Below the pieces are notes generated by a model. It did no database searches, was not told the DNA's origin, and saw nothing but the letters and a program-made list of their open reading frames with translations. A stretch of DNA of 64,000 nt from Betaproteobacteria bacterium. Its GTDB lineage: Bacteria; Pseudomonadota; Gammaproteobacteria; Burkholderiales; Casimicrobiaceae. Shown piece after piece: positions 3,569 to 11,951 of the stretch; position 1 is the stretch's first letter; every line of letters begins with the position of its first letter. Made by a program: the position numbers and the translations under genes. The stretch covers positions 1 to 64,000 of the forward strand of contig JAAFJA010000007.1 in NCBI GenBank assembly GCA_013298765.1. Reading direction: 5' to 3'.

Positions 3569-4075
3569 CTACTCTGCGGCCTTGAGTTCCTCGATAATCC
3601 TTGCGCTACGCGCCCTAATGCGCTCCATCATTGGTGGCATTAGCGATTGCATCATCGGGGCTGATTGCGATATCACCTGCGGTGCTTTCTGCGCAAACGC
3701 AATGCCCGCTGGCGAACGATAAAAGTCGCGAATTCCGCGCAATTCATCTAACGTATAAACAGTCGCATAGGCGTCCAGCATCGAAGCTTTTACCTTGCCA
3801 AGAAAATCCGCGCCCATCATGTCATCAGTAAATTCCGTCATATGGCGCTGCAAAATTTCCTGCTGCTTGGAGTTGAGCTTTTGACCACTGACTTGTTTTT
3901 GCAAGTTTTGTAGCGTGGGGGTCATGAGTTGTCGCACGCTTTGGGCCAGTGACTCGCTCGCGGTCAGATCCAAAACTTCTTGTGCAAGTTGTTTCGCTTC
4001 TGCCGAGGGCTGCGCATATGAAGGGGCGCTTGTGGCGAGAAGAAACGATGCGAGGAGTAGAGCGCGTAGTTTCAT
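3569..4075 (-). CDS. DUF2059-family periplasmic protein
   Basis: 168-aa ORF with a signal peptide (MKLRALLLASFLLATSAPSYA). It is helical and Q/L-rich, with the LDELRGIRDFYRSPAG motif typical of DUF2059. Confidence 0.7.
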   Translation of the reverse strand: MKLRALLLASFLLATSAPSYAQPSAEAKQLAQEVLDLTASESLAQSVRQLMTPTLQNLQKQVSGQKLNSKQQEILQRHMTEFTDDMMGADFLGKVKASMLDAYATVYTLDELRGIRDFYRSPAGIAFAQKAPQVISQSAPMMQSLMPPMMERIRARSARIIEELKAAE

Positions 4076-4136
4076 GTATTTCCTTTAATCGATTCGCCAA
4101 ACTGAAACAAGTGAGAGCGTAGCGGATTTCAACCGA

Positions 4137-5765
4137 TCAAATGGCAATAGCGTTGAAACTCAACCCAAACCGCGCCAAATACTTGCGCAACCGATCCGCG
4201 TCGTTCACTTCGCTTCGCTCTTCGCGCGAGACGTTGTAGAGCTTGCGACCCGCATCCGAGAGCGTGCGGCTTTGTTTGCACACGCGAATTACCGCTTCGA
4301 GTTGCAGGCGATCGAAGAGATCGAGTTTTGCGAGTGCGGCTTCGTCGACATAGCGTTCGAGCTCGACGCTTTGCGCGTTGCTCGTCGATGCGTCTTTCGC
4401 CCAAAGCCATTTGAGCCGCTCGATTTCCGCATCGACCACGGCCTCGGTGATGCGCCCGCCGTCGGCGAGTGTGGCCATGCGAGTCACACTTGCGGATAGA
4501 TCACGAAAATTGCCTCTCCACGCGCCATTTACACCGGACGCGAAGCTCATATAACGCTTTTTCGCTTCTACATTGAATCGAGCCTGTTGCCCGATATCTT
4601 TTGGGCTAAGTGACAATAGGTAATCTACGTTCGGCTCAATGTCTTCGGGTCGCTCGGCAAGGCCGGGCAAGGTGTAACTCCAGAGATTGATCCGCGCGAA
4701 CAAATCCTCTCGAAACTCGCCGCGCGCGACCGCATCGCGCAGATCGAGATTGGTGCCTGCGATCAACTGGAAATCGCTCGCAACTTCTTTGTCTGCACCG
4801 ACTGGATAGAAGCGTTTGTCTTCAATCGCTTTGAGCAGCATCGCTTGTTCATCAAGCCCGAGCGTGCCGATCTCATCGAGAAAGAGCACGCCTTTGTCAG
4901 CGCTGCGAAGCAAGCCCGCGCGATCGGCCATCGCGCCCGTGAACGCGCCCTTTTTGTGACCGAACAAGGTGGACGCGGCGCCGTCGCCCATGAGCGTTGC
5001 GCAATTCACTTCAACGAATTCGCCAGTGACGTTGTGTCGCTCTTTCTTCAATTCGTAAATGCGCTTCGCGAGGAAACTTTTCCCCGCGCCGGTGGGGCCG
5101 GTCAGCAACACTGGCGCACTTGATCGCAGCGCCACGTGTTCAATCTCATCGATCAAGGCGTTGAAGCGTTTGTTCTTCGTTGCGATGCCGCTTTTCAAGT
5201 AGCGCTTCGCATCGTCCGTCGCGATCGCAAAGCGTTTCGCAATCGCGTCATAGCGCGAAAGATCAAGATCGATCAGCGCATAGCTGCCCGGATCGCCTTC
5301 GCGCTGCGGGCGTGGCGGCGCGGTTTGCAGGAGCACACCCGGTAGCACGCGCGCCTCTGCAAGCAAGAACAAACAAATCTGCGCGACGTGCGTGCCCGTC
5401 GTGATGTGAATCCAATAATCCGATTGCTCCGGATCAAGCTTCTGCGCATGCGCCCAATCAAAGAGCGCGCCATACATCTCACCGAAATCCCAAGGATCGC
5501 GCACGGGCAGCGCATGCAAGGTGACGCGCGTATCCGGGCTCACGAGCGCGATGTCTGCCACCACTTGCTCCGCAATCCGCTCATGCCCCGGCGAATGCAA
5601 CAGCTCAATCGCATCAATCGCGACATCTTCGTGCTGCACGATAGAAATGGTCGGCCGCCACTTTTGCCAACGACCACGACCGCCGCCTGCATCAAGCTGC
5701 GAGCCTAGGAAGCCGATGACGGTGGTGGGTTTGGTGGTTGGTTGTGACACTCTTTGCTGCTCCAT
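4137..5765 (-). CDS. rtcR: sigma54-dependent transcriptional activator RtcR (CARF-like N-terminal domain + AAA+ domain + C-terminal HTH)
   Basis: Collinear with E. coli RtcR throughout (WRPT, HITTGTHVAQIC, IDLDLSRY, GPTGAGKSF, GAFTGA, FLDEIG, ATWRGNFRELSASVTRMAT, NDADRLRKYLARFGL). The start was chosen at MEQQRV (5765). An alternative upstream ATG lies at 5798. Confidence 0.9.
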   Translation of the reverse strand: MEQQRVSQPTTKPTTVIGFLGSQLDAGGGRGRWQKWRPTISIVQHEDVAIDAIELLHSPGHERIAEQVVADIALVSPDTRVTLHALPVRDPWDFGEMYGALFDWAHAQKLDPEQSDYWIHITTGTHVAQICLFLLAEARVLPGVLLQTAPPRPQREGDPGSYALIDLDLSRYDAIAKRFAIATDDAKRYLKSGIATKNKRFNALIDEIEHVALRSSAPVLLTGPTGAGKSFLAKRIYELKKERHNVTGEFVEVNCATLMGDGAASTLFGHKKGAFTGAMADRAGLLRSADKGVLFLDEIGTLGLDEQAMLLKAIEDKRFYPVGADKEVASDFQLIAGTNLDLRDAVARGEFREDLFARINLWSYTLPGLAERPEDIEPNVDYLLSLSPKDIGQQARFNVEAKKRYMSFASGVNGAWRGNFRDLSASVTRMATLADGGRITEAVVDAEIERLKWLWAKDASTSNAQSVELERYVDEAALAKLDLFDRLQLEAVIRVCKQSRTLSDAGRKLYNVSREERSEVNDADRLRKYLARFGLSFNAIAI

Positions 5766-5815
5766 GCTCCCTCTAGTGCTGGGTTCCTTGCACCACACCT
5801 CAATCTGTCATCCCC

Positions 5816-5914
5816 GCGGAGGCGGGGACCCAGACCGAGACGGTCGAGAAACTACGATCATTTGATCAACAGCAATCTGCCCGGTCTGGGTTCCCGCCTT
5901 CGCGGGAATGACGA
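5816..5914. repeat. inverted-repeat pair of GC-rich palindromic units (tgtcatccccgcggaggcggggacccagaccg / cggtctgggttcccgccttcgcgggaatgacg)
   Basis: Arms of 32 nt at 5816-5847 and 5882-5914 are reverse complements with 3-4 mismatches. Each arm is itself palindromic (CCCGCG..GCGGG). The pair lies in the rtcR / rtc-operon divergent intergenic region. Confidence 0.75.
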
Positions 5915-6064
5915 CAGCGGGTTAGCTATTTTGCTATTGAACGTGCTTTCAAGCTAGTTGCGCAGTGAATTGACTCACGTGCGGCGCCAGCAAACGTGAG
6001 CAAATCAGAAAAGTAATTAAATAAATCAATGGTTTACGGTTGGCAGCCGCTGCGATACACGATC

Positions 6065-6080
6065 TGGCACGCTCGCTGCA
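6065..6080 (+). promoter_or_regulatory. sigma54 (RpoN) -24/-12 promoter for the RtcR-controlled operon
   Basis: The sequence is cTGGCACgctcgcTGCAa. The GG sits at 6066-6067 and the GC at 6078-6079, giving the canonical 12-nt spacing. It matches TGGCACG-N4-TTGCW apart from a single T-to-C change. It lies about 300 nt upstream of the divergent rtcR and points toward the SPFH-ankyrin-rtcB genes. Confidence 0.75.
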
Positions 6081-6091
6081 ATAAGAAAAGC

Positions 6092-6655
6092 GTCAAACAG
6101 AAAACATGATGCGCTTACAGGTTCTAGGGGTTTGCTCCCCACCGGTGCGCGATGCCTCGAATGGTTCGAGTTGCGTGTTGCGTATGCCGCCGCATGTGGA
6201 CTGCTTGATATGAAGTTCTCTTGGTGACAGCGGCAACGCTGTTGGGTTCGATTCCCTTGAATTTCTCCTTTTGGATAGCTCAATCGGCAGAGCAATCGAC
6301 CACGAATCGATATGTAGCGGGTTCGAATCCCGTTCCAAAACCTGGCCTGAAACGCCATGATGAAACCCGAGCCGCAAGGCTCACCGCCGAATGCAGATCG
6401 GCAACGCGGACAACGAAGCATCGAAACACGAAAGCGAATCGATGCTGCGGTGGAAGCGAAGGCGATTTGTCAGCCCGCGCGCTCTGCGATATGCGAGAGG
6501 CGAGGACGAACGGCACGGCAGCGTTGTTAGTAACGCGTTCGATGCAGTTTGATCGAACGCGAAGCAAGCGACAACACCGTTGCTCAACGTTCAACGCAAG
6601 CGAATCCCGCGAGCGGACTGTAACGGCAACACTCACGAATAAAGAAAGAACAACA
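6092..6655 (+). ncRNA. structured 5' leader / candidate ncRNA region between the sigma54 promoter and the first CDS
   Basis: About 560 nt with no convincing CDS. The overlapping ORF translation is low-complexity and R/T-rich. The region contains the tRNA-like element and several perfect hairpins (GCATCGA..TCGATGC at 6419-6446; CGTTCGAT..ATCGAACG at 6536-6559). Confidence 0.4.
6269..6341 (+). tRNA. tRNA-like cloverleaf, Arg(ACG)-type but atypical; a possible pseudo-tRNA or Y-RNA-like tRNA mimic in the rtc operon leader
   Basis: Manual fold. The acceptor stem TTTTGGA/TCCAAAA has 7 bp. Positions 8-9 are U8 and A9. The D-arm is GCTC-AATCGGCA-GAGC and includes GG. The anticodon stem is ATCGA/TCGAT with loop CCACGAA, so the anticodon is ACG but position 33 is C rather than U. 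The variable loop is ATGTA. The T-arm is GCGGG-TTCGAAT-CCCGT. The discriminator is C and no CCA is encoded. The AT-rich acceptor stem is anomalous for this GC-rich genome. Confidence 0.5.
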
Positions 6656-7795
6656 ATGATGAATCTAAACAAAATCAATGTGCGCAAAACCGAACGTGCA
6701 GTACTTTTGCGCAATGGCGATTTCGAGCGCGTGCTCGCGCCGGGTCAATACTGGTTTCCTACGCTCTTCGACAAGATTGTCGTGGAGCGAAAAGAGGTAG
6801 CACAGCCACTCTACATCGGCGCTGCTGCTGACTACCTGCTCGCAACGCCTACCGATTCGGCAAACGAGCACTTCGTGCGTGTTGAATTGAACGATACGCA
6901 AGCTGGCTTGTTGTACGAAAACGATTCGCTCGTCGAACTTTTGCCGCCTGCGACGCGTCGCTTGTATTGGAAGACTTCGGCAAACGTGCGCGTTGAAACC
7001 GTTGAGCTTTCGGGTGAAGGCGAGCTTGCGAAAGACTTGGTTGCAAAGATCACGCATTCGCAATTGAAGCGTCGCGCGGTTGCTGGTTTGCAAGCGGTGT
7101 TGCAAGTGCAAGTGCCGGAATACAACATCGGCTTGCTTGTGATCGACGGGAAACTTGTTCGCATGCTGGAAGCGGGTTCGTATGCGTTTTGGCGATTTAA
7201 CCGTAGCGTTACGGTGGAGTTCGTCGATTTGCGTGTGCAAGCGCTTGAAGTCACCGGTCAAGAAATCTTGACGCGAGACAAAGTGGCGCTACGACTCAAC
7301 CTGGGCGCAACGTGGCGTTATGCGGACGTGTTGAAAGCGTTCGCGATGACTGCGAAACCGTTGGATAACCTCTATCGCGAATTGCAGTTTGCATTGCGCG
7401 CCGCAGTGGGCACGCAATCGCTCGACGAGTTGCTGGAAAACAAAACGGCACTCAATGAGAAGGTTAAAGTCGCAGTGCGCGAGCGCATGGCGAGCGCAGG
7501 TATCGCGCTTGAGGCAGTGGGTGTGAAAGACATCATCCTGCCTGGCGAGATGAAAGCGATCCTCGCGCAAGTCGTAGAAGCGGAAAAAGTCGCGCAAGCC
7601 AACTTGATCCGTCGCCGCGAAGAAACCGCTGCATCGCGCTCGCTCTTGAACACAGCGAAAGTGATGGAAGACAACCCAGTGGCGCTACGCTTGAAAGAGC
7701 TAGAAACCCTGGAACGCGTCGCGGAACGCATCGACAAAATCTCCGTGTTTGGAGGTTTGGACGGTGTGTTGAACGCGTTGGCGAAAGTGAAGTAG
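6656..7795 (+). CDS. SPFH/band-7 (stomatin/flotillin-like) domain protein
   Basis: About 379 aa starting at the ATGATG after aaagaaagaacaaca. The SPFH domain is indicated by the pattern LYENDSL..RRLYW... and long coiled-coil/EA-rich helices (ILAQVVEAEKVAQANLIRRREE). No N-terminal TM segment is evident. Confidence 0.75.
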   Translation: MMNLNKINVRKTERAVLLRNGDFERVLAPGQYWFPTLFDKIVVERKEVAQPLYIGAAADYLLATPTDSANEHFVRVELNDTQAGLLYENDSLVELLPPATRRLYWKTSANVRVETVELSGEGELAKDLVAKITHSQLKRRAVAGLQAVLQVQVPEYNIGLLVIDGKLVRMLEAGSYAFWRFNRSVTVEFVDLRVQALEVTGQEILTRDKVALRLNLGATWRYADVLKAFAMTAKPLDNLYRELQFALRAAVGTQSLDELLENKTALNEKVKVAVRERMASAGIALEAVGVKDIILPGEMKAILAQVVEAEKVAQANLIRRREETAASRSLLNTAKVMEDNPVALRLKELETLERVAERIDKISVFGGLDGVLNALAKVK

Positions 7796-7802
7796 CCTCG
7801 TC

Positions 7803-7930
7803 AACGAGTGATTCCCTCCCCTTCAAGGGGAGGGTCAGGGTGGGGATAGTTTTCTCTGCCTCCTATCGACCGAAAACCATTCCCCTCCTAGCCTCCCCGT
7901 TGAAGGGTGAGGAACCCGCAAAGCATCGGA
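7803..7930. repeat. REP-like GC-rich palindromic element (two units)
   Basis: It contains ccctccccttcaaggggagggtcagggtgggg and cctccccgttgaagggtgagg, which belong to the same family as 1255-1340 and 40288-40332. Confidence 0.7.
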
Positions 7931-7937
7931 TCAGCGC

Positions 7938-8474
7938 ATGAACGACTACGACTACATCATCAACAGCTTACAAAACGAGTCGATCACCGAATGGGAAGAG
8001 TTGGCGTTGATTGTTGACGATTTCCCCGGTGGGGTCGATTGGTGGTTGGGGCGACGTTGGATCATCAATGCAATTGATTTGTCCCCGTTGAGCGCAATCG
8101 AATGGATGCTCACGAAAGGGATAAACCTTCGATTCCGTGACGGCGAAGGCTATACGCCGTTACATTCAGCGGTAGAGCGTAGATTCGATGATCGCGTTCA
8201 AGTGATAAGTGCATTAGTGGGAGCGGGTGCAAATGTCGACGAGATTGGTCGTGAAACGACTACCCCTCTCTTATTCGCGCTCGAAATGAAGCGAAACGAG
8301 TGCGCACTTGCACTTTTGCAACTCGGCGCAAACGTCCACGTTCAAACACTGATCGATTGGTATGAATCCCCGCTCGAGTACGCGCAGCGCACGAAACATG
8401 AGCTGTTGCCTCAACTTGAAAATGCCGCTGCGCGAAAAACTCGCGAATTCGGGGCCAAAGTGAAAACAGCATGA
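7938..8474 (+). CDS. ankyrin-repeat protein
   Basis: 178 aa with three ANK-like units (GYTPLHSAVERRFDDRVQVISALVGAGANVDE; TTPLLFALEMKRNECALALLQLGANVHV). GC is about 50%, below the window background. Its stop overlaps the rtcB start (ATGA). Confidence 0.8.
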   Translation: MNDYDYIINSLQNESITEWEELALIVDDFPGGVDWWLGRRWIINAIDLSPLSAIEWMLTKGINLRFRDGEGYTPLHSAVERRFDDRVQVISALVGAGANVDEIGRETTTPLLFALEMKRNECALALLQLGANVHVQTLIDWYESPLEYAQRTKHELLPQLENAAARKTREFGAKVKTA

Positions 8475-9688
8475 AAAACTACAACGAAATCCAAACCGAA
8501 AACGTCCCGATCAAAATGTGGACGAAGGGCGTGCCTGTTGAGGACGACGCTCAGAAGCAATTGCTCAACGCTTCGAAGTTGCCGATTGTGTTTAAGCACA
8601 TCGCTGCGATGCCGGACGTGCATTTGGGGATTGGTGCGACTGTGGGCTCGGTGATTCCTACGCTGCGGGCGATCATTCCGGCGGCCGTCGGCGTGGACAT
8701 CGGTTGCGGGATGATTGCTTGCAAGACGACGTTAACCGCGAGCGACTTGCCGGATAACTTGTTGCCGCTTCGTAGCGCGATTGAGCGCTCGGTGCCGCAC
8801 GGGCGCGTGGCGATGCGCGGGAAGCGAGACACCGGCGCGTGGGACAGCCCGCCCGAGGAAGCGGATGCTGCGTGGGCGAAACTTGCATCGGGTTTTGATG
8901 AGATCACCGAGGTTGAGCCGCGCTTGAAAAACACGAACAACCGAAAGCATTTGGGAACGCTTGGAACGGGTAACCATTTCATCGAAATTTGTCTCGATGA
9001 GAAGCAGGCGGTTTGGATCATGCTGCATTCGGGTTCGCGCGGCGTGGGTAACGCGATCGGAACGCTCTACATTGAGCGCGCTCGCGAAGAAGCGATCAAG
9101 CACAACATGAATTTGCCTGACAAAGATTTGGCGTATTTCGAAGAAGGCTCGAAGTATTTCGGCGACTACGTGCGCGGCGTGAGCTGGGCGCAGCAATTCG
9201 CGAAACTAAATCGCGAAGTGATGATGCAGCGCGTGATTGCGGCGATGAAAACCGTGATCGCGAAGCCGTTTGAGACGCATCTGGAAGCGGTGAACTGTCA
9301 TCACAACTATGTGCAACGCGAAACGCATTTCGGCGAAGCCGTGTTCGTGACGCGCAAGGGCGCGGTGAGCGCAAAGGCGGGTGAACTCGGCATCATCCCG
9401 GGTTCGATGGGCGCGAAGAGCTACATCGTGCGCGGAAAAGGCAATCCGGAAAGCTTCATGTCATGCAGCCACGGCGCAGGCCGCACGATGAGTCGCACGC
9501 AAGCGAAAAAGCGCTTCACGCTCGCCGATCACATCAAAGCGACCGAAGGCGTGGAATGCCGAAAAGACGAGGATGTGATCGACGAGATTCCGATGGCGTA
9601 CAAAGACATCGACGCGGTGATGGAAGCGCAGCGGGATTTGGTGGATGTGGTTTATACGTTGAAGCAGGTGGTTTGTGTGAAGGGGTGA
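8471..9688 (+). CDS. rtcB: RNA-splicing ligase RtcB (3'-phosphate/5'-OH RNA ligase)
   Basis: 405 aa. The N-terminus ...PIKMWTKGVPVEDDAQKQLLNASKLPIVFKHIAAMPDVHLGIGATVGSVIPT is near-identical to the E. coli RtcB N-terminus. The metal-ligand and catalytic His regions (GTGNHFIE, SCSHGAGR) are conserved. Confidence 0.95.
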   Translation: MKNYNEIQTENVPIKMWTKGVPVEDDAQKQLLNASKLPIVFKHIAAMPDVHLGIGATVGSVIPTLRAIIPAAVGVDIGCGMIACKTTLTASDLPDNLLPLRSAIERSVPHGRVAMRGKRDTGAWDSPPEEADAAWAKLASGFDEITEVEPRLKNTNNRKHLGTLGTGNHFIEICLDEKQAVWIMLHSGSRGVGNAIGTLYIERAREEAIKHNMNLPDKDLAYFEEGSKYFGDYVRGVSWAQQFAKLNREVMMQRVIAAMKTVIAKPFETHLEAVNCHHNYVQRETHFGEAVFVTRKGAVSAKAGELGIIPGSMGAKSYIVRGKGNPESFMSCSHGAGRTMSRTQAKKRFTLADHIKATEGVECRKDEDVIDEIPMAYKDIDAVMEAQRDLVDVVYTLKQVVCVKG

Positions 9689-9691
9689 GGG

Positions 9692-10417
9692 ATGCAAGTA
9701 GATATCAATGCGCGCTATACGGACTTAGTGGTTCGCTCGGAGCGGACGTGGCAGGAAGCATTGCTATTGTTTGACCGACTGAATCGAAATAGAGAAGTAC
9801 TGAGCAGAATCGAGGAAGATGAACTAAGGAGTAATCCACCTCCTATTCATTTCATGCGAAAGCGAAAAAGCGAGTGGCGCGACGAAGCTATCGCGGCAAA
9901 CGCGGAGAGGCTACTTGAGATTGCATCGCGAACCGCATTGGTTTTCGGGCACTCCGCGTTGGACGCAGCACTAAACGATTTTCTGTGTTTTTGTGCGACC
10001 CTCGACGGCAGCGCTTTCGATTTTCATGTTCAGGAGCGAAAATTGCCCGCGAAGGAATTTCTTTCTAAGAGTGGTTCAGAACTCAGAGCAGCGCTTATTG
10101 ACCGATTCCTGAAAGAATCCTCAAGAGAACCAATTTTGAAAAGAATTTCGATACTTTTGTCGATTTGCAAGCCAACGGCTCAGCATTTCAGCGATGTTGT
10201 CTACCCAGAGTTTGTCTACGAGCAATCGCGAGTGGAGCAAATCGACCATTTGCGGCATCAGGTGATTCACCGAGGCGCGATACCAAGCATTAACTACGAT
10301 GACACGCTTTATCTTTACATGATCACACGCTTGGTCTATCGCGTAGTTACCTCGCTGCGCCCGGTCACATTCGATTTAGATCTTGCGATAAGAACCTCCA
10401 CTAACCTGAAGAGCTAG
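9692..10417 (+). CDS. hypothetical protein, low-GC, occupying the position where RtcA is normally found; possible HEPN-like Rx4H motif
   Basis: 241-aa ORF. Its start lies 4 nt after the rtcB stop, with no intervening intergenic region. GC is about 42-48%. No recognisable RtcA motifs are present. The C-terminal region has LRHQVIHRG, an R-x4-H pattern. It is predicted alpha-helical. Confidence 0.55.
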   Translation: MQVDINARYTDLVVRSERTWQEALLLFDRLNRNREVLSRIEEDELRSNPPPIHFMRKRKSEWRDEAIAANAERLLEIASRTALVFGHSALDAALNDFLCFCATLDGSAFDFHVQERKLPAKEFLSKSGSELRAALIDRFLKESSREPILKRISILLSICKPTAQHFSDVVYPEFVYEQSRVEQIDHLRHQVIHRGAIPSINYDDTLYLYMITRLVYRVVTSLRPVTFDLDLAIRTSTNLKS

Positions 10418-10582
10418 AGCATCGGAATTTCGTTTCGGTCGTAGCTAGGATGAAGCGCAACGGAATCGAGGCATTTCATTCGCAACCCCTCGATTGCGCT
10501 TCGTTTCATCGAGGCTGCGAATCGTGGATCGCTTCGCGATGCGTTACGGGAACCCGGATGCGAGCATCCGGGCTACGTCCTT

Positions 10583-10693
10583 CGTTTTCGGTAGGGTGCG
10601 ATCCTATCGCACCTTGTGCGCATACGCGCGAAGCGCACTACTTCAATCCGCGTTGGTCGGTATCAAACTGGGTGCGATAGGATCGCACCCTAC
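10583..10693. mobile_element. MITE-like element of about 115 bp (copy 1) with terminal hairpin/inverted repeats TAGGGTGCGATCCTATCGCACC ... GGTGCGATAGGATCGCACCCTA
   Basis: Terminal 23-nt inverted repeats lie at 10583-10606 and 10669-10693. The internal core (cttcaatccgcgttggtcggtatcaaa) is about 80% identical to the reverse complement of the core of the second copy at 55157-55255. Confidence 0.65.
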
Positions 10694-10712
10694 GATTCGT
10701 CACAAAATTGCA

Positions 10713-11063
10713 TCACGGTTTCCCGTACGCGCGCTCGACCTTGGCGATTCGTAATTCGAAGTGTTCATACCAACGCTCTTGCCCATACTGCTGCGCGACT
10801 AGGTGTTCGGCGTTGGCTTTCCATTTGACGATTGCGGCTTCGTCGCGCCAATACGAGACGGTGATGCCGAAGCCGTCGGCGCCGCGTGCGGATTCGATGC
10901 CGAGGTAGCCGTCTTGTTGGGCGGCAAGTTCGACCATGCGGTCTGCCATGTCGCCGTAGCCGTCGGACGCCCCGTGTCCGTCGTTGTCCGCACCGGGGGT
11001 TCGAAAGCTGGAGAAGATCACGGCGAAGTAGGGCGGTTGAGGAAGCGTTGCGAAGTTCGTCAT
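10713..11063 (-). CDS. antibiotic-biosynthesis-monooxygenase (ABM)-like / stress-responsive alpha-beta barrel protein
   Basis: 116-aa ORF with the motif SYWRDEAAIVKWKANAEHLVAQQYGQERWYEHFELRIAKV, typical of the ABM/Dabb fold. Confidence 0.55.
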   Translation of the reverse strand: MTNFATLPQPPYFAVIFSSFRTPGADNDGHGASDGYGDMADRMVELAAQQDGYLGIESARGADGFGITVSYWRDEAAIVKWKANAEHLVAQQYGQERWYEHFELRIAKVERAYGKP

Positions 11064-11177
11064 TCTTGTATCGTGAGGCGTTCAAGGCTCGGCTCGAAAT
11101 CGTAGCGCAACCGAAGCATTTGGCAGATGCGCTTTCAGCATCGATGTTGTTGAGCGAGTTATCCAATAATTGCTGTT

Positions 11178-11951
11178 ATGCGCATTCTCATCACCGGACT
11201 CAACGGCTCGTTAGCGCCGCATCTTGCGCGGGTTGCACGTGCGCACGCGCACGAGGTGATCGGTTGGGATCGCGGTGCGGTTTCTCCGGATGATGCAGCG
11301 GCGGGCGATACGTTCCTTCACAACACGCAACCCGATGCCATTGCGCATTTGGGCTTTGGGAGTGAGGATTGGGCCGCGCGGCTTGCGAGTTGGGCAGCGG
11401 CGAATGATCGAGCGTTTGTGTTCACGAGTACGGCAATGGTGTTCGATCATCTACCCGATGGCCCGCATCGAGTGAACGATGAGCGCACGGCGAAAGACGA
11501 TTACGGTCGCTACAAAATTCGTTGCGAAGACGCGATCCGCGCGGCGAATCCTGCTGCGTGCATCGCGCGGATTGGTTGGCAGATTGATGTTGACGACGAC
11601 GGCCACGCGCGGGGTAACAATATGCTTGCGGCGCTCGATCAACAGCAAGCCAGTGATGGACGGATTCGCGCGAGCACTGCGTGGCGGCCCGCGTGTTCGT
11701 TGATGAGCGATACGGCGTTGGCTTTGCTTCAGTTGATCGAGCAGCGCGGCGAAGGTGTCGTGCATCTCGATAGCAATGAAGACTCAGCGCTCAATTTTTA
11801 TGAGTTGGTTGCGTCACTCAAAGTGCGGTTCGCTAGAGCGTCGTGGATCATCGAGCCGCATGCGGAGTATGTTCACGATCAGCGGCTGATTGCTTCCGAG
11901 TGCAGCGCGGTGCGTATCGCGCCGCTTTCAGCACGGTTCGGTAGCCAATAA
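11178..11951 (+). CDS. NAD(P)-dependent sugar-nucleotide epimerase/reductase (short-chain dehydrogenase/reductase (SDR) family; RmlD-substrate-binding-like)
   Basis: 257 aa. It has an N-terminal Rossmann motif (MRILITGLNGSLAPHL) and the Y-x3-K pattern (DDYGRYKIRCE). Confidence 0.65.
   Translation: MRILITGLNGSLAPHLARVARAHAHEVIGWDRGAVSPDDAAAGDTFLHNTQPDAIAHLGFGSEDWAARLASWAAANDRAFVFTSTAMVFDHLPDGPHRVNDERTAKDDYGRYKIRCEDAIRAANPAACIARIGWQIDVDDDGHARGNNMLAALDQQQASDGRIRASTAWRPACSLMSDTALALLQLIEQRGEGVVHLDSNEDSALNFYELVASLKVRFARASWIIEPHAEYVHDQRLIASECSAVRIAPLSARFGSQ

Follow-up and report, generated by a model that had tools for sequence, protein, structure and literature searches.

A predicted HEPN gene directly behind rtcB

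The DNA considered here (the window) is a stretch of 64,000 nucleotides from contig JAAFJA010000007.1 of a Burkholderiales bacterium of the family Casimicrobiaceae. It carries an operon built around the RNA ligase gene rtcB, and our subject is the open reading frame (ORF) that follows rtcB, whose product is a predicted RNase of the HEPN superfamily. The two genes are:

8471–9688, plus strand: rtcB, RNA 3'-phosphate/2',3'-cyclic phosphate ligase (Pfam RtcB, E=2.4e-129), directly 5' of the HEPN ORF
9692–10417, plus strand: HEPN-superfamily ORF, 241 aa, ATG start; N-terminal helical extension at about residues 1–58, HEPN core at about residues 59–220

The junction reads TGA-GGG-ATG: a 3-nt spacer separates the genes and the ATG begins at the fourth base past the rtcB stop, exactly where a preliminary description, made from the DNA letters alone, had placed the start of a 241-aa ORF. 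An AAGGGG Shine-Dalgarno-like run lies within the rtcB 3' end, 7 nt before the ATG, and a mechanical ORF list holds no other long ORF at 9692–10417. The same description had the GC content of the ORF far below a background of about 0.63. The ORF is GC-poor (0.481 overall, 0.517 at third codon positions, 0.46–0.50 in its 300-nt windows), and just 0.08% of 726-nt windows in the 64 kb are as low, but the background is 0.570 (standard deviation 0.027, 726-nt windows), which reduces the contrast to about 9 points instead of 15–20; the genes flanking the ORF lie at 0.57–0.61.

Fold, conserved motifs and family

AlphaFold2, given the family alignment, returns an all-helical model (predicted local distance difference test score, pLDDT, 95.3; predicted template modelling score 0.90) with the all-alpha, four-helix up-and-down core of HEPN proteins; a run from the single sequence is unusable (pLDDT 48). 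Pfam yields a sole match, to HEPN_RiboL-PSP (PF18735), which covers nearly the whole model (profile positions 4–175 of 191) at 13.4 bits (E=0.071), below the gathering threshold of 28.4. The profile is matched by 10 of 150 relatives at E<=0.01 (best E=5e-6), and HEPN_Apea by two. Together with a conserved Rx4-6H motif and a polar residue (N/H/D/Q) after the R, these hints make HEPN membership well supported, and the ORF product is best modelled as a single-domain HEPN-superfamily protein, in line with the HEPN-like motif that had been suspected. Two motifs stand out:

10253–10270, plus strand: predicted catalytic motif R188-H189-Q-V-I-H193 (Rx4H, polar residue after R)
9950–9964, plus strand: second near-invariant motif, H87-S-A-L-D91, on the long first core helix

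LRHQVIHRG (residues 187–195), which contains R188 and H193, does fit R-x4-H, as first noticed. By itself the fit is not significant: shuffling this R-rich protein produces R-x4-H in 52% of cases, and its four matches to R-x(4-6)-H compare with 2.1 expected (P=0.14), so R188 and H193 are singled out only by conservation across homologues. Among the 150 best relatives, about 20% identical to the query, each of the two residues is kept in 150/150, the outcome on which the preliminary description had let its proposal depend. Position 189, just after R188, is H in 126, Q in 21 and N in 2, and D185, slightly N-terminal of the motif, is kept in 149. The second motif, F85-x-H87-S-x-L-D91 (F85 in 133/150, H87 in 148/150, position 91 D in 132 and E in 18), does not belong to the canonical signature of HEPNs; it might complete their active site.

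The family is rare and largely out of reach of curated collections. Scanning 1.84 billion cluster representatives exhaustively with phmmer gives 343 relatives at E<=1e-3, five of them at E<=1e-30, whereas a word-indexed search of 5.8 billion proteins matched the query to itself alone and, with the family profile, to two proteins. The 343 representatives define an unannotated, predicted HEPN clade with a second invariant His/Asp motif. PADLOC-DB 2.0 has no family matching the protein at E<=1, PHROGs an irrelevant weakest match at E=0.098 and NCBIfam nothing meaningful; phmmer and hmmsearch against PDB sequences give spurious matches alone. Foldseek against PDB and BFVD finds nothing below E=0.2.

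Several known identities were tried and rejected. Like our protein, RiboL-PSP-HEPN, described as distantly related to AbiD/AbiF (Anantharaman et al. 2013), consists of one domain preceded by an N-terminal extension and has a conserved Rx4H, and its model is the sole curated one with a signal. Its features, however, include an L-PSP fusion or a ParB operon (PMC3710099, Table 1). The ORF has neither fusion nor ParB neighbour, its score is below the threshold, and the F-x-H-S-x-L-D motif of its clade is not in the available family description; membership thus fails, and the protein represents an unnamed clade near RiboL-PSP-HEPN. A HEPN-MNT toxin–antitoxin system of type II/VII is contradicted by the lack of a nucleotidyltransferase beside the ORF and of a conserved partner in 45 family loci. 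RtcA, whose motifs had been reported missing, is indeed not encoded here: Pfam finds no RTC or RTC_insert domain, the model is all-alpha, and tblastn of the whole 64 kb found neither RtcA nor RlaP. No PADLOC-DB 2.0 model of a known anti-phage defence system was matched.

The operon frame

Around rtcB and the HEPN ORF, the following features make up the predicted operon and its borders:

4137–5798, minus strand, divergent: rtcR, CARF-type RtcR domain plus sigma54 AAA+ activator (Pfam RtcR, E=3.4e-76; Sigma54_activat, E=3e-49)
6065–6080, plus strand: sigma54 -24/-12 promoter-like element TGGCACGCTCGCTGCA (TGGCAC-N5-CTGCA; found with the regular expression TGGC-N8/9-TGC[AT])
6269–6342, plus strand: tRNA-like gene at the operon head, called tRNA-Arg(ACG) by ARAGORN (Rfam tRNA, 57.9 bits)
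6656–7795, plus strand: SPFH/Band-7 protein (Pfam Band_7, E=1.3e-30), start ATGATG at 6656
7938–8474, plus strand: ankyrin-repeat protein (Pfam Ank_2/Ank), GC 0.507, its stop overlapping the rtcB ATG (ATGA)
10439–10520, plus strand: imperfect hairpin with 33-nt arms 3' of the HEPN stop, with an embedded terminator-like stem (10481–10498) and a T-rich tail; probable operon end
10713–11063, convergent: ABM gene, the next gene after the HEPN ORF

The order rtcR, tRNA-like gene, SPFH, ankyrin, rtcB, ORF and hairpin makes the ORF the last cistron of a putative RtcR-controlled operon. It is co-directional with rtcB, and the element at 6065 falls in the interval that separates divergent rtcR from the tRNA-like gene, 189 nt 5' of the latter; no sigma70-like promoter was found in 5700–11200. 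The HEPN ORF is accordingly predicted to be co-transcribed with rtcB under RtcR/sigma54, and the tRNA-like RNA, by its position behind the element, to come first in the RtcR-dependent transcript. SPFH homologues, 50–74% identical, occur in many related rtc operons. The ankyrin-repeat gene has no tblastn match in any fetched rtc locus, and locus L004 (L numbers denote loci) holds zf_Tbcl and an unknown 245-aa protein in its place; the slot upstream of rtcB is thus variable too. The 295-nt gap after the ORF also contains a perfect 23-nt inverted repeat (10591–10613 and 10671–10693, 57-nt spacer).

The tRNA-like gene belongs to the SPFH module: it lies between rtcR and the SPFH gene in 20/20 SPFH-containing rtc loci and in 0/7 loci lacking SPFH. 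ARAGORN called it in the window, L004 (3781–3851), L008 (4458–4531), L014, L024, L033, L062, L064, L066 and L086; Rfam tRNA-like matches identify it in L019, L022, L026, L028, L038, L049, L050, L052, L053 and L055. The nine ARAGORN calls outside the window carry eight other anticodons (Asn, Val, Phe, Cys, Met, Lys, Leu and, twice, Ile). Conservation is seen in the D- and T-arms, the changes in the variable anticodon stem are compensatory, and the window gene has C, not U, at position 33. On sequence grounds the 'tRNA-Arg(ACG)' is an operon-specific tRNA-like RNA. Burroughs and Aravind reportedly noted in 2016 a 'novel tRNA-like molecule' with Band-7, which the RNA here matches. Their modules are said to combine tRNA-like RNA, Band-7, zf_Tbcl or RlaP as alternatives, and RtcB, as does the operon frame here; the HEPN clade was found in a narrow lineage only within the sampled loci. 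Two further RNA genes were seen in other rtc loci. An RNase P RNA gene sits beside rtcR in four Comamonadaceae loci (L019 1–339, L026 2017–2368, L028 1275–1710, L053 1318–1657), and L050, which also has the SPFH/tRNA-like module, carries a YrlA Y-RNA-like gene (81 bits; 5835–5967) immediately 5' of rtcB.

Divergent alleles in a conserved slot

All four closest homologues of the HEPN protein (P0002–P0005, 34–38% pairwise identity to the query) are encoded directly behind rtcB, and across the five alleles the spacer is 3–9 nt; the true start of P0004 is a GTG 3 nt past the rtcB stop. Its contig (L004) repeats the order of the window: RtcR, tRNA-like gene, Band_7, RtcB, HEPN homologue. The RtcBs beside the other HEPN alleles are 86–98% identical to the window RtcB; the five HEPN alleles share 31–40% with one another, a divergence at which synonymous sites are saturated. 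Nucleotide similarity between loci spans rtcB, ends at its stop codon and returns after the HEPN ORF: L002 387–1612 aligns with window 8464–9688, and L002 2293–2485 with window 10428–10612 at 80% identity, the intergenic element being conserved and the HEPN ORF not. Each HEPN allele lies 9–12 GC points under its own rtcB. In a neighbour-joining tree the rtcB-linked alleles fall into one star-like clade that includes P0006, a member encoded away from rtcB, after glyA (SHMT). Such a pattern marks a cassette that diverges quickly or is often swapped within a slot that is itself conserved, as is usual for conflict genes. Hypervariability of this kind favours direct contact with a partner that itself changes fast, which may be a foreign protein or a variable RNA, over a housekeeping role in end healing. 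In its own locus, P0006 has a Gp49/HTH_3 (HigB/HigA-like) pair as a neighbour, some 1.8 kb away (L007 8001–8750 and 10506–11125).

Elsewhere the slot is filled differently. In 80 Burkholderiales reference loci around RtcB relatives of 72–82% identity, no member of the HEPN family was found; the first ORF past rtcB, scorable in 57 of them, is RtcA in 17 and RlaP in 16, and the rest are zf_Tbcl, HEAT, Fic, DUF5677, GNAT and others. Conflict-type proteins directly after rtcB include Fic/DOC (L009 7305–8750) and DUF5677 (L028 7301–8071). The RtcR-SPFH-RtcB operon of Simplicispira sedimenti has a 247-aa Abi_C protein starting 7 nt past rtcB (L019 7228–7971), with the motif RNRLGDAH, i.e., R-x6-H with N after R. 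From this motif and from the Pfam classification of Abi_C, we take this protein to be a probable AbiJ-type HEPN. An hhalign comparison showed no kinship with the HEPN family; on that reading, the same post-rtcB slot of another genus would hold an independent HEPN.

Three close RtcBs (96, 92 and 87% identity; L139, L140 and L141) were picked blind to their downstream gene. L139 and L140 occupy the same chromosomal site as the window: in the former, rtcB is followed by zf_Tbcl and an unrelated 239-aa ORF, in the latter by nothing co-directional; L141 has the order RlaP-RtcB-RtcA. The L139 locus (3784–5850; RtcB 96%) also encodes a sigma54 activator of 332 aa without the RtcR/CARF N-domain, whose AAA+/HTH half has 89% DNA identity to window 4155–5163. 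A ParA-like AAA_31 gene flanks it in place of the tRNA-like/SPFH genes, a curious parallel to STM14_3218, the ParA-like protein on which RtcR activation depends in Salmonella.

Co-occurrence with RtcB is not family-wide: the P0001–P0005 branch alone is linked, and 0/83 other rtcB loci carry the family. Conversely, 45 metagenomic loci of the wider family contain RtcB in 0/45 and no recurrent neighbour; integrases, an Eco57I-type methylase, YhcG, RadC, HicB and one TROVE protein are among the genes nearby. A tblastn search of plasmid and phage collections with a typical family member gave no match and hence no support for a mobile-element origin. The narrow linkage and the solitary wider family together suggest that the gene is a facultative, lineage-restricted accessory drawn from a pool of solitary HEPNs.

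Comparison with known systems

Close operon-level counterparts are the RtcBA and Rsr-YrlBA-RtcBA operons of E. coli and Salmonella (PMC7790460): there too RtcR (CARF plus sigma54 AAA+) is divergent, the promoter is of the sigma54 type, and rtcB is immediately followed by an accessory gene. The window operon differs in lacking RtcA and Ro/Y RNA, in having tRNA-like RNA, SPFH and ankyrin genes upstream, and in placing a HEPN in the RtcA position. Among single-HEPN proteins, the comparison was with the abortive-infection anticodon nuclease HepS of the Gifsy-1 prophage (PMC13043305, PDB 9oik). It has no detectable sequence similarity to our protein and is prophage-borne, constitutively expressed and outside any rtc operon. 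As a precedent for HEPN cleavage activating RtcR it was rejected: in Salmonella, deletion of HepS (STM14_3211) left RtcR activation unchanged and a different prophage region was needed (PMC9879122).

A HEPN and RtcB work together in metazoan XBP1 mRNA splicing, where IRE1, a HEPN-family RNase, makes cuts with 2',3'-cyclic phosphate (2',3'-cP) and 5'-OH ends and RtcB rejoins them. To our knowledge, this is the only established HEPN-RtcB cut-and-rejoin pair. IRE1 is, however, eukaryotic, kinase-fused and not operonic, and the window system gives no sign of a specific spliced substrate. The attribution to the superfamily rests on the KEN domain of IRE1, counted as HEPN (PMC3710099).

Interpretation

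The overall best explanation, which we hold to be somewhat probable, is that a conflict-type HEPN RNase has been captured as the last cistron of an RtcR operon and that its cuts are reversible by RtcB or feed it. HEPN RNases are metal-independent and leave 2',3'-cP and 5'-OH ends (PMC3710099); such ends are joined by RtcB, and RtcR is switched on by tRNA fragments with 2',3'-cP (PMC7790460). The analysis shows the gene, its coupling, the operon frame, the fold, the invariant R/H pair, the hypervariability and the cassette behaviour; RNase activity, substrates and interplay with RtcB or RtcR are what we infer. The protein is most likely an endoribonuclease of this kind. It would come from a rare, unnamed clade that diverges quickly and is a remote relative of the RiboL-PSP-HEPN/AbiD-AbiF group; most members of this clade are solitary genes in island-like contexts. 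One branch seems to have been captured by an RtcR/sigma54 operon (tRNA-like RNA, SPFH, ankyrin, RtcB, HEPN) in one Casimicrobium-like Burkholderiales lineage, where it is translationally coupled to rtcB and fills a variable accessory slot held by RtcA or RlaP in sister operons. Coupling and operon together imply that the protein would be made only upon RtcR-sensed RNA damage and never without the ligase. Damaged tRNA or rRNA may be cut again or trimmed by it to give ligatable ends; it may also keep RtcR active by adding 2',3'-cP fragments, a part ascribed to RtcA in the RtcR activation loop (PMC11090510). The suggestion in the preliminary description of a nuclease/ligase pair or an RtcA replacement is partly supported.

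The main rival, possible though rather unlikely, is a passenger: a defence or selfish cassette encoding a stand-alone Abi-type suicide RNase, sensor and effector in one like HepS, that came to rest in a recombination-prone place behind rtcB and has no tie to RtcB in function, using only its transcription. Single-HEPN Abi anticodon nucleases are an established type (PMC13043305), and the solitary wider family with its heterogeneous, island-like neighbours, the low GC and deep divergence of the alleles, and a slot whose content changes even between the same flanks (zf_Tbcl and a 239-aa ORF in L139, nothing in L140) would all suit such a cassette. Yet five alleles that differ at 31–40% identity all keep the 3–9-nt junction, which leaves no room for a promoter, and the rtcB-linked alleles form one clade, implying long retention in the slot. 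An unrelated, probable HEPN family at the same position in another genus and the lack of matches in PADLOC, phage and plasmid collections also speak against a mere passenger.

An addiction pair, in which RtcB re-ligates each cut of a constitutive HEPN toxin and the genes stabilise each other, seems improbable. The layout, with the protector upstream and the coupled toxin downstream, recalls type II toxin–antitoxin operons, and HEPN and RtcB chemistries are complementary (PMC3710099, PMC7790460). The operon, however, is apparently silent without RtcR activation, having a sigma54-like and no sigma70-like site, which does not suit a constitutive toxin–antitoxin system; RtcB, much better conserved and more widely distributed than the HEPN gene, occurs without it in close relatives, and family members elsewhere lack RtcB or any conserved partner, the protein evidently being tolerated alone. 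We likewise give little credence to a non-catalytic HEPN-fold adaptor or scaffold (of the sacsin, MtlR or kanamycin-NTase C-domain type) that would aid substrate recognition by RtcB or SPFH: inactive HEPNs typically lose R or H, as the families listed without one or the other illustrate (PMC3710099, Table 1), whereas here the invariant pair and the polar residue after R, preserved over 150 sequences at about 20% identity, form the catalytic HEPN signature.

The captured-RNase explanation also has a bolder form, one we regard as distinctly speculative, in which the operon would amount to a bacterial analogue of IRE1/RtcB, a complete machine for cutting and rejoining RNA that damage switches on: a specific RNA would be the target of HEPN and would then be resealed by RtcB, with the 2',3'-cP intermediates acting back on RtcR and HEPN alleles matched to the tRNA-like bait or to invading RNase toxins or phage proteins. 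Candidate targets would be host tRNA anticodon loops or the variable-anticodon tRNA-like RNA of the operon itself.

Implications for Rtc systems

HEPN RNases and RtcR/RtcB operons are already known separately; we found no published description of a hypervariable HEPN cistron translationally coupled to rtcB or of an independent HEPN in the same slot. In the usual view, RtcB operons repair RNA cut by enemies, and here the operon carries its own predicted RNA cutter, coupled in translation to the ligase and presumably switched on by the same signal of damage. If the RNase is active, some Rtc systems would not be purely restorative and could amplify or reshape RNA damage, by feed-forward through RtcR, by excising damaged nucleotides ahead of ligation, or by shutting translation down reversibly. 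The extreme divergence of the alleles beside a nearly invariant ligase marks the HEPN protein as a likely direct participant in an arms race, and these alleles would offer natural variants for finding what it recognises.
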